This document shows positions 9,986 through 62,536 of a stretch of 64,000 nucleotides of DNA, one piece after another (position 1 is the first letter of the stretch; each line of letters begins with the position of its first letter). Below the pieces are notes generated by a model. It saw nothing but the letters and a program-made list of their open reading frames with translations, was not told the DNA's origin and made no database searches. Location of the stretch: positions 5,456,001 through 5,520,000 of the forward strand of contig OX597817.1 of the NCBI GenBank assembly GCA_951406725.2, given 5' to 3'. This DNA is from Octopus vulgaris (Eukaryota). Both the position numbers and the translations under genes were made by a program.

Positions 9986-10217
9986 GGCGGCGAGCTGGCA
10001 GACACGTTAGCGCGCCGGGCGGAATGCTTAGCGGTATTTCGTCTGTCGTTACGTTCTGAGTTCAAATTCCGCCGAGGTCGACTTTGTTTTTCATCCTTTC
10101 GGGGTCGATAAATAAAAGTACCAGTTTCGCACTGGCGTCGATGTAATCGACTTAATCCCTTTGTCTGTCCTTGTTTGTCCTCTCTATGTTTAGCCCCTTG
10201 TGGGCAATAAAGAAATA
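9986..10217 (+). mobile_element. tRNA-derived SINE family B
   Basis: ggcggcgagctggcag head, GAGTTCAAATTCC B-box, catcctttcggggtcgata body. Flanked by the 16-bp direct repeat tatatgttgtgtatat (TSD). Confidence 0.9.
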
Positions 10218-10235
10218 TATATGTTGTGTATATTA

Positions 10236-10282
<47 letters not shown>

Positions 10283-10372
10283 AATGTATTTGTGTATATG
10301 TATGTATTGTGTATATATTTGTTGATGTATATAATGTTATATGTAAGTGCAAGTATATATGTATGTATACGT

Positions 10373-10406
<34 letters not shown>

Positions 10407-10507
10407 GAGTACAATTAATCAATTTAGGGTAGTAAAAAATTCGATAGAAATTTATCACTACCAGCGGCCCAGTGGAAAAGAAAAATAGTCATGAGACTAA
10501 AATGTAA

Positions 10508-10940
10508 ATATATAACAATTTAGGAATGGCCTTAACAGGCCATTCGTCCACTAGACAGAGCAGCCATAACTCCAACCGCAAAGTAACATAATTCGGAAAT
10601 AGGTGAAAAATTAAAAACGTTTACCCTAATTCATCTTTTAGACGATGCATCGTTTTTGCGTTTTTAATGATAGACCAGCTTAATTAAATTAAATTAAGCT
10701 AATCTACCACGTTTCTTTACTGACGAAGCGTGACCTATGGTAGATTAGCTTAATTTAATTTAATTAAGCTGGTCTATCATTAAAAACGCAGAAACGATGC
10801 ATCGTCTAAAAGATGAATTAGGGTAAACGTTTTTAATTTTTCACCTATTTCCGAATTATGTTACTTTGCGGTTGGAGTTATGGCTGCTCTGTCTAGTGGA
10901 CGAATGGCCTATTAAGGCCATTCCTAAATTTTTATATATA
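10508..10940. repeat. Near-perfect long inverted repeat (about 200-bp arms, 28-nt spacer)
   Basis: 10517-10709 is the reverse complement of 10738-10930 with very few mismatches. Confidence 0.95.
10714..10813 (+). ncRNA. Type I hammerhead ribozyme (Penelope pLTR/retrozyme type)
   Basis: CTGACGA at 10720-26; stem II GCGT/ACGC extended by a 19-bp hairpin; GAAA at 10791-94; palindromic stem III ACGATGCATCGT; GTC site at 10804-06; stem I TTTA/TAAA. Confidence 0.75.
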
Positions 10941-11059
10941 TGAGTACATATGTAAATATTTATGTGTATGTGTTATGCGTGTGTATACATGAATGTATAT
11001 ATATATGTATATATATATATATGTGTGCGTGTGTGTGACAGCGTGTGTATCGTTGGCGA

Positions 11060-11234
11060 TTTTCCTTCTCCGTATTCCCTTCCTTGGACCTTTCCTTTTT
11101 CCATGTTTCTGACGAAAAGCTCCACTCGAAACGTTAAATCCTCCTTCTTTCTTTCCTTTCCTGGGCGTCCAATAACACTATACTTGTTCCACGTCTTCAC
11201 ATTGTTGTGTTTTCTCTTTGCTCATGTTTGGAGT

Positions 11235-11238
<4 letters not shown>
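11060..11238 (+). mobile_element. Short HHR-bearing repeat, family H1 (PLE-derived)
   Basis: gttt-CTGACGA-aaagctccactc-GAAAC-GTT-aaat. Homologous to 18596-18745 and 49776-49943; flanked by microsatellites. Confidence 0.75.
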
Positions 11239-11276
<38 letters not shown>

Positions 11277-11902
11277 TATGTATGTGGGTGTATGTGTTCA
11301 CATGTGTATATACATATGTGGGTATTTGTGTATATGTGTGCATTTGCTGACTGAAGTGTCGGTAAAGATGACAAGCAAGTGACACCCTAGCTGCCTATAG
11401 CGAATAATCAAGCGTAGGAATATTCCACTGGTATCTTTAAAACGCTATAACAACCGCTATGTATCTCTCTCTCTCCATTATCATAGGCACAACAGAGACT
11501 TAGGTACTTATTCCTTATCTACAGGTATTAGAGAAAATTCTCTTTTCTTCTACGAGTATTTAAGAAAATTCTTTGATCTAGTTTAACACAGTAGTTATGG
11601 TCATTCATACTATAATGCTCTCTGAAATCTGTTATAAATCTTAAAAGTTATTTGCGAGTGTTAAGCAACGTTTTACGACTTGATAATGTAATCTGTTTAA
11701 TAGCCTTTCCTTATGTAACGATTTTATTATTGTTAATGAAATGTGCGTAGGATGACATAATCAAATAATTTAGTAACAAACTCTGTTCTATATGTGTGTG
11801 TGTCTGTGTGCCTGTGTGTGACTTTATGTATATATATATATATGTGTGTGTGTATGTGCGTGTGTGTTGACATACATGTATATGCGTGTGTGTGTGTCTG
11901 CG

Positions 11903-11997: not shown

Positions 11998-12372
11998 ATG
12001 TGCAAGACATGCAGTGTCTGTGCAAGACCCTGCCTCAGTGAAGCTGGACTCAAGAGACATCTTCGTAGTCATAAAGCGAGACAGATGAGTGACAACCTGG
12101 CCACTGGTAGTGGTGTAACACACCATACTAATCATATCTGTCGGGCATGTGGAAGAGAGTGTAATTCGGCAGGAGGGCTTAAACGACATGCAAAGGTACA
12201 TGAAGTCCAGTTACAACTACAGCCGGCTTTTTACCGGTAAAGGTTTTAGTTGCCAATTCTGTACAAGTCATTGTAGATCTTTAGCTGGGCTAAAAAGTCA
12301 CATTCGATCACAGCACCAGTAACAGTTAAGCTTCGTGCAATGGCCATACTCGATGACGAGGGGGCAGCCATA
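11998..12372 (+). mobile_element. 3' end of an RTE-type LINE with three C2H2 fingers and 3' UTR
   Basis: CSVC..GLKRHLRSH, CRAC..GLKRHAKVH and, after a frameshift, CQFC..GLKSHIRSQH*. The UTR ggccatactcgatgacgagggggcagcca+(tgta)n is shared with 17474-17520. Confidence 0.7.
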
Positions 12373-16116: not shown

Positions 16117-16572
16117 ATTGATTGATTGATTGATTGATTGATTCTAGTTTCAGCTCATGAGCTGTGGCCATGCTGGGGCACCGCCATTTGGTGTTGCTAC
16201 TTGGTTTTACTTCACGAAAGCTTTTTAGCAACTGCCATTTGGTGCATGAGAGAGTTCGATGCAGCTGCCCTCATCTGCACCTCCTGCCGTGAAGTTGGTT
16301 CATCTGGGACACCTGACAGGAAGAGATCCAGTTTCATTTTAAAGACATCTGCATCAACCCCATGCAGGTCTCTTATGTTCTTTGGGAGGATATTGAAGAG
16401 CTGTGGGCCTCGGAAGCCCAGGCTATCACAGTATATTGTCCTACATCTTGATGGCAAATTTGGAGTCCTAGGCACCACGCAGTGGCGCCCAGTTCTGGCA
16501 TTTGTGTAACTCTCGATGCCAAAGTTTGGGACACGTCCCTCCAGGATCTTCCAGATGTATATTATGGCATAT
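16117..16572 (-). mobile_element. 5'-truncated CR1-group LINE (ORF2 C-terminus, 3' UTR, (aatc)n tail)
   Basis: ORF 16212-16604: YAIIYIWKILEGRVPNFGI..RGPQLFNILPKNIRDL..FKMKLDLFLSGVPDEP. Inserted within the Gypsy RT. Confidence 0.88.
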
Positions 16573-16576
16573 CTTA

Positions 16577-16810
16577 TGGTATCATTGATAATCTTATCAA
16601 ACAAACAAACCTAGTGGATACCTTCGCCTACGTTGACATCACAATATGCAGGCGCAACAGAAAGCAACATGATGAGAATTATGAAAGTTTCCTACAAGTC
16701 GCGAAGACATACGGGCTTACCTTCAACGATAAGCAGACAGTCATTGCCGCCAGGACTATCACTCTCCTGGATTACGAAGTGCTCAAAGGGGTAAACAGAC
16801 AAGATTAAGA
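16577..16810 (+). mobile_element. Gypsy RT, continuation
   Basis: IIDNLIKQ..FAYVD(-)ITIC..QHDENYESFL..YGLTFN..ITLLDYEV, which is the YxDD region with one D missing. Confidence 0.85.
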
Positions 16811-18595: not shown

Positions 18596-18739
18596 TCCTT
18601 CTCCTATGTTTCCGACGAAGAGCTCCGCTCGAAATGTTAAACCCTCCTTCTTTCCTTCTTTCCTGAGCGTCCAATAATACTTTATTTGTTCCACGTCCTC
18701 GCGTTGTTGTGTTTTTTTTTTGTGTTTTCTTGTTTGGAT

Positions 18740-18745
<6 letters not shown>
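18596..18745 (+). mobile_element. HHR-bearing repeat family H1 (CCGACGA core variant)
   Basis: gttt-CCGACGA-a-gagc(tcc)gctc-GAAAT-GTT-aaac, between (TA)n tracts. Confidence 0.75.
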
Positions 18746-25373: not shown

Positions 25374-25533
25374 TGTGTGTATGCATGCAGACACAGCTTT
25401 TTATTGAAACTGAAGCTGAGATATTGTTTCACTACTCAAGTTTCCCACCATCGCGATCTTCAGGTGAAACAGTGGCGTGAACTTCACCCTCGAAAGAATC
25501 TCTTAGCTTCAATTTCTGTGAAAAAAAGATAGG

Positions 25534-34590: not shown

Positions 34591-34749
34591 TATATAAGAT
34601 AGATGAGTGTATTTTTCCTTGTTAACGAATTAACACGGAAAAATAGATAGTCGACGCGAGGCGCTAGCAAAATAATCACACAAGTAAAGAGGTTGTATGC
34701 TCCATGTTTTTATATAGGTACGAAACTTCATTTACGTGTATTTTTATAT

Positions 34750-34990
34750 CTTGCATATATAAAAAGATATACGTGTCTGTCTCCTACGATTTAGATTCCA
34801 ACTACAGGACGTTTTGCGGTGAAAAACATAAAATCTTATAGTCGTGATTCATATCGAAAAGTCCTTCTGGGTATTAGCGCGCGTCTACGATGAGTCTATA
34901 TTTAAATATAAATTTATATTCATTTTTAAATTTTAATGCATTTTTCCCTTTATATAACAAGTAACTCTCTAAAAATAGTCTAAATGAGTC
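34750..34990 (+). mobile_element. Degenerate 5' part of the non-autonomous Helitron family
   Basis: tgtctgtctcctacgatttagattcc..tcttatagtcgtgattcatat..attagcgcgcgtctacgatgagtc is the reverse complement of 36340-36480. Confidence 0.75.
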
Positions 34991-35095
34991 ACCAGGGTAG
35001 CAAAAAATCACACATATAAAGAGGTTGTAACTCCTTGTTTTTAAAGGTAGAAACTTCGGGTTTACGTGGAATTTTTTATATAATATATAAGTAAA

Positions 35096-35344
35096 TAAAT
35101 GGAGTTTAACGCAGGTATAATTCAAATACTTTTACTTCCGATACATGTTTCGAAGATTTCACTGATATTATTCCACAGGAATAAATGGTGTAAAACAAAT
35201 GTAATCTTCTCTTCAGGGAAGTGAAGAAATGAAGAGAAGACTACATTGCTTTTACACCATTTATTCCTTTGGAATAATATCAGTGAAATCTTCGAAACAT
35301 GTATCGGAAGTAAAAGTATTTGAATTACACTTGCGTTAAACTCC

Positions 35345-35349
<5 letters not shown>
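35096..35349. repeat. Long inverted repeat (about 120-bp arms, 14-nt spacer)
   Basis: 35096-35215 against 35230-35349; abuts (TA)n. Confidence 0.93.
35134..35222 (-). ncRNA. Type I hammerhead ribozyme
   Basis: ACTTCC-CTGAAGA-GAAGATT..AATCTTC-GAAA-CATGTA-TC-GGAAGT. This gives a 6-bp stem I, a 7-bp stem II, an AUC site and an ACATGT palindrome in loop III. Confidence 0.78.
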
Positions 35350-35406
<57 letters not shown>

Positions 35407-36102
35407 GGAAATATAAATAAACAAGTCTTAACGTATCTTCAACAGAAAGATACACACAGAGAGAAAAAACACAGAAAGAAGGAGAGAAAAAATGCGTGCA
35501 GAGGTAAGTGTTGATAGTGGTATTGGTAGAATATAGGATGAAAAGGAAAGAGAGGAAGAGAGGGACAGCACATAAGTTAGAATACGAAGATGGGGAAAGT
35601 AATAAAGAAATCATATAAACTTACAAATACAGCTTAAAATTGCGACGCGGCACCTCCAGATTATTATTACATTCTTCTCTATCTTACGAAATTACAGCGA
35701 AGTGTTAATTCTATCATCAAAAGAATGTTTATTGCACTTACCTACCTTTGATTGTAGTCAATAAATGTAGCTTTATAGCAAAAATATATCGTAAATATAT
35801 ATATAAATAAGTTTATATACTGAGACATTAGATCTGAAATCATATATTGAAACGGATATTGTTGTAATTTTCAAGATTACTGCTTGTTATTTTAATAAAT
35901 GACAAACTTACTCACTGTCTGTTATTTTATGCACTTCTTCGGCTACTTTTGCTGGAACTGAAGTCATATAATGTAAAGTAGCAGTAATTAAAATAAAGAA
36001 GTGAATTAACAGCTATCTCTTTAGCGCCTGTGCTGCATATTTGGCAAAAGAACAAATGCAACAACCTATATTAATTACTAACAACTAAAGTTATATTTTA
36101 CA

Positions 36103-36504
36103 CTAGCAGTATCGCCCGGCGTTGCTCGGGTTTGTAAGGAAAATAACTATATAAGCATTTTTAGAGAGTTATAGCCAAACAATAGCAAAAAAATGCATTA
36201 AAAATGGAAAAAAAAATGATGGTAAATTTTTTTTAAATCGTTGATTCATCGTAGACATTTTTAGAGAGTTACTTCTCTTATATAATAGCGAAAAAGATGC
36301 ATTAAAATGGAAAAAAATGATGGTAAATTTTCTTTAGAATCGTAGACTCATCGTAGACGCGCGCTAATACCCAGAAGGGCTCTATATGAATCACGACTAT
36401 AAGATACCCGGTTTTGGTTAAACTGCACCGAAAAATGTGGGAGTAGTTAGGAATCTAAATCGTAGGAGACAGACAGCACACAACCACTCTTTTATATATA
36501 AAGA
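36103..36504 (-). mobile_element. Non-autonomous Helitron with internal tandem duplication
   Basis: A|TC...hairpin+CTAG|T termini. An about 100-bp unit (ttttagagagtta..gcattaaaatggaaaa..catcgtagac) occurs twice. Confidence 0.88.
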
Positions 36505-42161: not shown

Positions 42162-42932
42162 GGATCTATTCAGTTTGGCTCACAGATTTTTTTAATTAAT
42201 TTTTTTAAACTATTTTTAATTTAGTTTGAAACTTCGTATACTGGTGGAATGTCTCACGTAGGACACGGTTAACTTTGAACATTTTTGACAAAATTTGGTA
42301 TTTTAGAAATTATGCCGTGTTAAAGTTGCCGTATTTGGATAATTTCAATCAATCAACGACATGTATTCGGTTGAAGAAAGCTACTGCTGTTTGCGATAGT
42401 AATCGAAGAGGAACAACAACTTCCGGTTCATCTCTTCTAAATGTCACCACTCTGTTCAATTCGTATGTCGAGTGAAGATGATGCCACCTTTATCCTTTCT
42501 TCCTTTCTAGTCAGCACCGTGCATTTCTTACTCTTCCCCTCTCCACTATACTATCAACTAGCAACCAGCGAGCGAACTTGTCACTGCCACTACAATTACG
42601 GTATATTCCAGTATATAATCTTACCCTTATGTTTTGATAATGTTATTTTTTAATCTACTAATAACTTTTATATTGACGAAATGTATTTACTGTTGATTAT
42701 AGTAAGATAAAATCATGACCATAATGATGCATCTCATAGATGCAAAACAAAGCATTTTGAAACTACAGGAGTGGCTGTGTGGTAAGTAGCTTGCTAACCA
42801 ACCACATGGTTGCGGGTTCAGTCCCACTGCGTGGCATCTTGGGCAAGTGTCTTCTGCTATAGCCCCGGGCCGACCAATGCCTTGTGAGTGGATTTGGTAG
42901 ACGGAAACTGAAAGAAGCCTGTCGTATATATG

Positions 42933-42980
<48 letters not shown>

Positions 42981-43703
42981 TGTGTTTGTCCCCCCTAGCA
43001 TTGCCTGACAACCGATGCTGGTGTGTTTACGTCCCCGTCACTTAGCGGTTCGGCAAAAGAAACCGGTAGAATAAGTACTGGGCTTACAAAGAATAAGTCC
43101 CGGGGTCGATTTGCTCGACTAAAGGCGGTGCTCCAGCATGGCCGCAGTCAAATGACTGAAACAAGCAAAAGAGTAAAAGAGTATACGTTAACAGCAAGAA
43201 AGTTAGATGCGGACTCGTAGCTCTATGGGTCTTTTAAACATCGGTGTGCTTCATGTGTGGATAAAACACCGATGTCGGGCAACGAATAAATATATGTAAA
43301 TAATATTTCTTCCTTATTGGTGTTGATTCTTTGATGTTTACTGGTTACTCCGACGCGAGAACAACAAAAGAAAGGTGTGTAATATGCAACACGAGCAGTA
43401 AACAGTAAATAAAATAGAACAGAGTGGTGACATTTAGCAGAGATGACTCAGAAGTTGTTCTGCTTCGATTACTATCGCACACAGCAGTAGCTTTCTTCAA
43501 CCAAATACACGTCGTTGATTGGTTGAAATTACCTAAGTACGATAACTTTAACACGAAATAACTTCTAAAATACCAAATTTTGTCAAAAATGTTCAAAGTT
43601 AACCGTGTTCTACGTGAGACATTCCACCAGTATACGAAGCTTCAAACTGTTTAGTTACAAAACAAATTAATTTTTAAATCTGTGGGCCAAACTGAACAGA
43701 TCC
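42162..43703. mobile_element. Non-autonomous DNA transposon with about 290-bp TIRs and 8-bp TSD (Merlin-like)
   Basis: TIRs 42162-42457 and 43417-43703 start GGATC; CAACATCA flanks both ends (42154-61, 43704-11). Confidence 0.8.
42765..43182 (+). mobile_element. SINE family A nested inside the TIR element
   Basis: Near-consensus copy. Confidence 0.92.
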
Positions 43704-49705: not shown

Positions 49706-49775
49706 CACACATACACACACACACACACAGATATATATATGTGTGTGTGTATGTTTGTATGTGTGTGTATACATT

Positions 49776-49941
49776 TCCTCTGTCCTCCCGTCTCGGGATC
49801 TTTCTTTCTCCTATGTTTCCGACGAAGAGCTCCGCTCGAAACGTCATACCCTCCTTCTTCCATTTTCCTGACCGCCTAATAATAATAATACTGTAATTGT
49901 TCCACGTGTTGTTGTTTTTTCTGTTTTCCCGTTTGGATTAA

Positions 49942-49943
<2 letters not shown>
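49776..49943 (+). mobile_element. HHR-bearing repeat family H1 (CCGACGA core, GUC site)
   Basis: gttt-CCGACGA-a-gagc(tcc)gctc-GAAAC-GTC-atac. Confidence 0.75.
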
Positions 49944-49987
<44 letters not shown>

Positions 49988-61600: not shown

Positions 61601-61925
61601 CACTGTCCGAATGATGTTGACATCACCTTCAAGATACATCCAAGGCTTAGACCACGTGCCATCCGTTCGCAACAAAAATCTAAATCGCATCACATAACGA
61701 CAATACGGCACAATTATTTCACCTCAATTGGACCCGCTCTCTTCAACATTACACCAGGACACGTCAAAACAGAAACTGACCACACAAAATTCAAGAAGTC
61801 TTTGGACAAATTCCTTCAAACAGTCCCGGATAAACCACCCAAATCCTGAATTGAAAGACTTCGCCAGGTGGTGCTATTAAGTTAGACATGGCAAGGGCCA
61901 ATACTGGCCTAAACCTTTCTAAGTT
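61600..61925 (+). mobile_element. CR1-group LINE 3' fragment (different subfamily)
   Basis: TIRHNYFTSIGPALFNITPGHVKTETDHTKFKKSLDKFLQTVPDKP. Confidence 0.7.

Positions 61926-62536
<611 letters not shown>

Follow-up and report, generated by a model that had tools for sequence, protein, structure and literature searches.

Does a hammerhead ribozyme motif at the centre of a near-perfect palindrome of about 430 bp in octopus DNA form an RNA switch, or is the palindrome a trace of how a mobile element inserted? Within the window (the whole 64-kb stretch of DNA that was analyzed), sequence analysis recovered the arms, the spacer and the motif, as the original prediction had described them. We put at about 80% the probability that the 519-bp insert here consists of two head-to-head copies of a hammerhead-bearing repeat, likely a Penelope-like retroelement (PLE) represented by its truncated end (pLTR), and that the palindrome is likely an insertion by-product with no switching role.

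Palindrome geometry and insert boundaries

The palindrome arms occupy positions 10508 to 10709 and 10738 to 10939. Each is 202 nt long, and the two are 99% complementary across a 28-nt spacer. Three mismatches separate them: right-arm position 10791 (G) against left-arm position 10656, 10911 against 10536, and 10931 against 10516. The right arm is the sense copy of the element body (10738 to 10932, plus strand) and carries a private G-to-A change at 10911, while the left arm is an inverted, 5′-truncated copy (10515 to 10709, minus strand) that starts within stem II of the ribozyme. The spacer (10710 to 10737, plus strand) is additional 5′ sequence belonging to the copy with the longer head; it contains the 5′ strand of stem I (10711 to 10719), CUGACGA (10720 to 10726), A10727, and the 5′ side of the stem II base (10728 to 10731). 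Read in the ribozyme sense, the left copy starts 28 nt further in than the right copy; it lacks the stem I 5′ strand and CUGACGA, and it has a private G-to-A change at G12 (10656).

A 16-bp direct repeat (10398 to 10413 and 10933 to 10948) was the longest direct repeat from flank to flank and encloses the 519-bp insert. Its 16-mer is present just twice in the 64-kb window, both strands having been searched. The left copy of the repeat, likely a target-site duplication, closes a (TA)n run, and the insertion target is an AT-rich TA microsatellite. The outermost 7 nt of the right arm coincide with the start of the right repeat copy and also fit the element's own continuation, a junction microhomology.

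The two element copies also differ at their 3′ ends. The right copy spans 10710-10711, just upstream of stem I, to about 10932, and the left copy is ~100 nt longer. This one-sided, tail-like extension (10414 to 10514, minus strand, with an inner boundary accurate to within a few nucleotides) has no second copy in the 64-kb window; in public sequencing runs, letters related to it appeared only as a loose end behind 10941 in one run and in one single contig. The originally predicted extent of the palindrome was therefore right for the arms, but the true insertion reaches ~100 nt further left, and the right-arm edge overlaps the duplication. A 10-nt direct repeat was also seen between the one-sided extension (10502 to 10511) and the DNA just past the right target copy (10950 to 10959); it possibly reflects template-target homology that favored the site, or chance in AT-rich DNA.

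The hammerhead motif and its predicted folds

On the basis of a fold model and a shuffle test, a type I hammerhead motif was placed at 10711 to 10815 on the plus strand, with a predicted cut after C10806. Its core letters are CTGACGA (10720 to 10726), GAAA (10791 to 10794), and UH at 10805-10806, where the GUC ends at 10806. Stem I pairs the 5′ strand at 10711 to 10719 with a 3′ strand that begins at 10807; it has 4 bp, and 5 more are possible past a bulged C. The stem II region covers 63 nt (10728 to 10790, counting an extra A), with GCGT (10728 to 10731) pairing with ACGC (10786 to 10789) at the base and a 19-bp AU-rich hairpin (10737 to 10780) above it. Stem III is a 12-nt palindrome (10794 to 10805) that gives 4 bp in a monomer and 12 bp in a dimer.

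As predicted, CTGACGA lies in the spacer; the basal 5′ strand of stem II, previously assigned to the right arm, lies there too. Only the plus strand has a complete core. This part of the prediction stood, but the cause proposed for it, the arm mismatch on the G of GAAA, did not: the minus-strand copy begins at the equivalent of 10738, without stem I and CUGACGA. Because the left arm already lacks CUGACGA, its G-to-A change is irrelevant to the core, and the chance that at least one of two to three mismatches falls within the six core letters of an arm is 6 to 9%. The motif is also not minimal, contrary to its first description.

The A-A mismatch reported at the base of stem II was confirmed. 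A10727 and A10790 flank the G-C pair and place an A·A next to the core, and no 10.1-11.1 pair (usually G-C) adjoins G12. The missing pair lowers the motif's status as a canonical member, not as a hammerhead-like one. A literature search found no published data on 10.1-11.1 mismatches in hammerheads, and the noncanonical base bears on how much the hammerhead core tolerates.

Chance occurrence was assessed with a descriptor, written after the motif had been seen, on 200 dinucleotide shuffles of the window. The descriptor matched two cores in the window itself, at 10720 (plus strand) and at 25463 (minus strand, without a palindromic stem III). Shuffled windows held a mean of 0.03 cores and a maximum of 1, and a match with a palindromic stem III arose in 2 of the 200. 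The Rfam search proposed along with the original prediction returned no hammerhead, either at the gathering score over the whole window or at an E value of ≤10 over 10000 to 11800; four other hammerhead-like motifs in the window likewise went unmatched at the gathering score. Generic hairpin matches in Rfam (miRNA and similar) fell below the cutoff and were discarded.

Folding was examined with a nearest-neighbor model that ignores tertiary contacts. For the right half alone, as a monomer, the hammerhead fold lay 5.7 to 8.4 kcal/mol above alternatives, partly because 10710 to 10716 pairs with 10790 to 10796. This modeled gap does not exclude cleavage, tertiary contacts being left out of the calculation. 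The ribozyme 5′ end (10711 to 10716) is exactly complementary to AGAAAC at 10790 to 10795, and a helix between them would hide the GAAA box. Two copies favored a 12-bp intermolecular stem III, with the 12-nt palindrome at −18.7 kcal/mol as a self-duplex versus −1.0 kcal/mol as a hairpin. The double hammerhead reached −75.9 kcal/mol compared to −74.2 kcal/mol for two monomers, about 6 kcal/mol above the best dimer. The suggestion of a dimer-type hammerhead is thus supported by these energies and by an architecture that matches the literature.

The left arm changes this balance. On the plus strand it comes first in transcription order, and a minus-strand transcript has no core. Adding 30 nt of the left arm placed the hammerhead 19 kcal/mol above the hairpin, and with both full arms present the hammerhead ensemble lay 78 kcal/mol above it. 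The comparison of the whole region with its right half therefore did not yield the two exclusive folds, dsRNA or self-cleaving ribozyme, that had been proposed; the long hairpin is predicted to swamp the ribozyme once the left arm is present, and a switch is not supported. Any transcript of this copy with both arms is predicted by the model to be a plain hairpin of ~200 bp. Editing or dicing of a hypothetical read-through transcript is plausible on general grounds (excerpts of PMC5625713).

The repeat family and the origin of the palindrome

The sequence was found in public sequencing runs, in 20 of the 24 rows listed, under four organism labels and with a best share of 0.58 of sampled words. 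None of the rows listed was an RNA run, which carries no information about expression. Four runs from three organisms were aligned over 10682 to 10950 as contigs of ~60 nt, with 332, 338, 149, and 260 contigs placed per run. Summed depths reached 5 × 10^4 to 5 × 10^5, single records were as low as 4 to 40, and depth is not a copy number. The placements mark the element as a high-copy repeat.

At the hammerhead core positions, 10791 included, no variant letter reached 3% in any of the four runs. The core letters are the family majority in all four, which upholds the family-level conservation that had been posed as a check. Because no other letter reaches 3% at 10791, G is what the family has there, and the mutation lies in the left arm. 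At 10911, the family G makes up 96 to 99% of the depth and the right arm carries a private A, so the family polarizes one private mutation on each arm. A10790 is also the family majority, with C in 4 to 13% of the depth, and the odd stem II base is therefore a family trait. At 10859, 10860, and 10867 the two arms agree with each other but not with the family majority; this pattern points to a single template for both.

Over the left-arm stub (10682 to 10708), depth fell to 3 to 11% of that in the next bin and to <1% of the peak. The loose ends that precede 10711 and 10716 were unrelated to the left arm. Most family copies therefore do not share this palindrome. In three of the four upstream loose ends listed, AG directly adjoins stem I. 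Further loose ends, of one or two contigs each, belong to relatives that have other palindromes, with different letters, in stem III. A minority of multicopy contigs nonetheless aligned to the left-arm stub in each of the four runs, leaving gaps at 10706 to 10710; they may represent a palindromic subfamily or misplaced relatives. The exact palindrome junction appeared in the four runs only as a trace (depth of about 28 in one run).

Searches for the family elsewhere gave little. Two pattern scans of viral contigs returned no matches. Candidate relatives in a metagenome (two loci) and in genome contigs (three loci) matched over only 20 to 22 nt around the pattern, and all five were rejected as chance. 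Literature searches on hammerheads, Penelope, and cephalopods turned up no published description of the family; Repbase/Dfam or the supplements of Cervera 2014 may contain one.

The stub contigs are an argument for a rival reading, in which the palindrome or a palindromic 5′ end itself amplifies within a subfamily, either MITE-like or from a master copy that already contains a 5′ palindrome. They occur in four of four runs, at depths of 627, 1714, 75, and 1400, and have a common inserted G behind 10706; in addition, A. vaga pLTRs are described in excerpts of PMC3846280 as bearing 5′ palindromes of 18 and 38 bp. The same contigs, however, stay below 1% of the peak depth, lie three inserted letters off this junction, and could equally be sense-strand relatives of the right arm placed on the stub. 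The four-run alignment lists no joints, and the ends at this locus are asymmetric by ~100 nt. We consider amplification of the palindrome improbable.

A second palindrome in the window serves as an internal control. It is also arranged head to head (35083 to 35362; 133-nt arms, 93% complementary, 14-nt spacer) and derives from a family unrelated to the first, the two having no significant match to each other. Its type I hammerhead lies on the minus strand, with the core CTGAAGA at 35216; it starts in the spacer and has a canonical G-C stem II base, a 6-nt palindromic stem III, and a GUA site. The inverted copy starts one base into the core. Because an unrelated family has the same layout, a ribozyme at the palindrome turn is, on this comparison, a repeated outcome rather than a one-off design. 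This second palindrome is nested in another repeat and has (TA)n at both ends. Its flank at 34940 to 35083 was considered as a tail and rejected, as it matches other repeats at 34665 to 34749 and 36242 to 36295.

An insertion of a single copy that was later duplicated in inverted orientation, through DNA repair or replication slippage, is very improbable. The spacer could form a snap-back hairpin (10710 to 10715 with 10725 to 10730; −3.8 kcal/mol as DNA) and the arms are 99% alike, but the direct repeat encloses the two arms together as a single event, the flanking host DNA is not doubled, and the turn-round falls at the ribozyme 5′ edge in two unrelated families. An artifact of assembly or of library fold-back is just as hard to credit: one family-polarized private mutation per arm, a 16-bp duplication unique in the window, asymmetric ends, and unmirrored flanking DNA all stand against it, whereas the four runs did not recover the exact center and none held more than 58% of the sampled words. 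Least probable of all is a selected RNA switch between long dsRNA and active ribozyme: the plus-strand core is intact and above chance in shuffles, and octopus hyper-edits long dsRNA while Penelope is massively edited in lizard (excerpts of PMC5625713), but the 78 kcal/mol lies in the hairpin's favor, the G mismatch is a private and irrelevant mutation, an unrelated family repeats the layout, and no host gene was recognized nearby.

Other repeats and coding traces were recorded in the window. A third repeat, which has a minimal hammerhead, occurs as three solo copies at 11040 to 11217, 18596 to 18740, and 49770 to 49945 (cores at 11109, 18612, and 49819); two read CCGACGA, (TA)n follows each, and stem II of the 11109 copy has decayed. 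The strict descriptor misses these three motifs and the one at 35216, which were read by eye from a relaxed scan. At 989 to 1447, two units of ~157 nt (1015 to 1171 and 1291 to 1447), 97% alike, stand tail to tail across a TA run; each is a fold-back with arms of ~37 bp and a loop of ~60 nt that holds a GAAA-palindrome motif without CUGAnGA. DNA-transposon-like elements with long inverted repeats occupy 42228 to 43643 (234 nt, 90%) and 34774 to 36475 (134 nt, 81%), and the insertion nested in the former is presumably SINE-like. The segment at 61924 to 62417, with long A and T homopolymers among TA repeats, resembles low-quality assembly. Pfam searches of 150 of the window's 186 filtered frames gave no GIY-YIG match and no recognizable PLE or clear host gene. 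One weak RT match (RVT_1; E value of 0.0013, below the cutoff) fell at 16452 to 16805, 5.5 kb from the palindrome. This and traces of a Mos1-type HTH_48 domain at 2022 to 2270 (E value of 2.4e-5) and of a zinc domain at 12119 to 12319 (E value of 1.5e-6) are likely decayed mobile-element fragments.

Proposed insertion mechanism and comparison with known systems

The proposed Penelope-like link is supported. An inverted 5′-truncated copy, a one-sided extension, a direct repeat, and a TA target match the published insertion unit, and excerpts of PMC8557442, PMC3846280, and PMC2377424 describe PLE insertions with inverted 5′-truncated copies, tails, and a microsatellite bias. Membership is rated likely rather than established because no RT or endonuclease gene was linked to the family in the frames of the window and because the tail and the duplication are longer than those published.

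Given a Penelope-like insertion, we lean toward twin priming by the element's endonuclease. The enzyme would nick the two target strands at points 16 nt from each other, and the 3′ ends so exposed would prime reverse transcription at separate start sites on the element RNA, leaving one copy with a 3′ end longer by ~100 nt. One cDNA would end at the equivalent of 10738, just inside the ribozyme, and the other at that of 10710, just upstream of it; the two could be joined via the imperfect 6-nt match in the spacer (10710 to 10715 with 10725 to 10730). Each arm, read from flank to center, is antisense, as expected of cDNA primed from a nicked target strand. Such a single event would yield the duplication, the head-to-head order, the unequal 3′ ends, and the unequal 5′ ends. 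Self-priming fold-back is a somewhat less probable route to the same insertion; self-priming on an antisense template is a published model for PLEs (excerpts of PMC3846280). A simple snap-back from the right-arm cDNA was rejected, since on its own it cannot explain why the left copy exceeds its template by ~100 nt.

The hammerhead of the parent element would likely work in dimeric form, held together by the palindromic stem III and possibly helped by a protein. It is doubtful that the family encodes a new gated hammerhead variant, in which only dimerization, splicing, or the element's protein would switch cleavage on. The features that would mark it are an extra nucleotide on each side of the stem II base, the long stem II hairpin, and a 5′ end (10711 to 10716) that could pair with and hide GAAA and that lies directly behind a likely splice acceptor; a stem III palindrome kept with different letters in relatives is as expected under selection on this reading. 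If true, such regulation would be a property of the parent retroelement and not of this palindrome. As a single locus, the palindrome matters little, being probably just another scar of Penelope-like insertion. Taken together, such scars provide preformed hairpins of ~200 bp, two of them in the 64 kb analyzed, and may enlarge the pool of dsRNA that is edited in cephalopods. Where their junctions are clean, young copies also preserve a record of the PLE insertion mode, for which twin priming versus self-priming is still unsettled.

Comparisons with published systems refer to the cited excerpts. Among PLE type I hammerheads (Cervera and de la Pena 2014, PMC4209133), dual motifs lie on opposite strands 100 to 700 bp apart, helix III is palindromic, an extra nucleotide follows A9, and the D. 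virilis intron ends at helix I. Our family shares the type I topology, the CUGAnGA/GAAA/UH core, the extra nucleotide after A9, a dimer-suited palindromic stem III, and the opposite-strand pairs, and three of its four upstream loose ends finish in AG by stem I, as the D. virilis intron does. It differs in the 63-nt stem II region with its 19-bp hairpin, in the extra A (or C) before G12 that creates the A·A base, in a stem III palindrome of 12 nt rather than 2 to 4 nt, and in the 6- to 7-bp helix from the 5′ end that can sequester GAAA. For the giant squid genome, PMC6962438 gives 235 hammerhead loci without detail.

Non-LTR retrozymes (bioRxiv 10.64898/2026.07.22.740005) are likewise short, noncoding, PLE-derived, and equipped with a type I hammerhead; they form head-to-tail tandems with one hammerhead per unit, whereas the two copies at this locus stand head to head and have one complete core between them. 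A MITE or fold-back DNA transposon was rejected on account of ends asymmetric by ~100 nt and a stub depth of <1% of the peak.

The Poseidon element PAc of Anolis carolinensis (Frangieh 2024, PMC11167929) offers an enzymatic parallel. Its protein, predicted to dimerize, cuts AT-rich sites on both strands and extends each strand, using two internal start sites, which would give the geometry found here, and its hammerhead requires the protein. At our locus, no ORF start is tied to stem II, and the greater length of the extension implies more widely spaced start sites.

The closest match is the insertion unit of EN+ Penelope-like elements (Arkhipova 2013, PMC3846280; Craig 2021, PMC8557442; Schostak 2008, PMC2377424), with its hammerhead-bearing end, head-to-head inverted 5′-truncated copy, extension at one end, target duplication, and microsatellite target. 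In PMC3846280, the inverted pLTR is 37 bp shorter, the target-site duplication measures 8 to 10 bp, the tail is 31 bp, and head-to-head palindromes occur. The locus departs from this unit in having no ORF between the repeats, a 16-bp duplication compared to the 8 to 10 bp of A. vaga PLEs, and an extension of ~100 nt, of weakly supported family origin, compared to published tails of 30 to 40 nt. The architecture is thus likely an ordinary one, the known layout of a PLE insertion, with the family as a new member.
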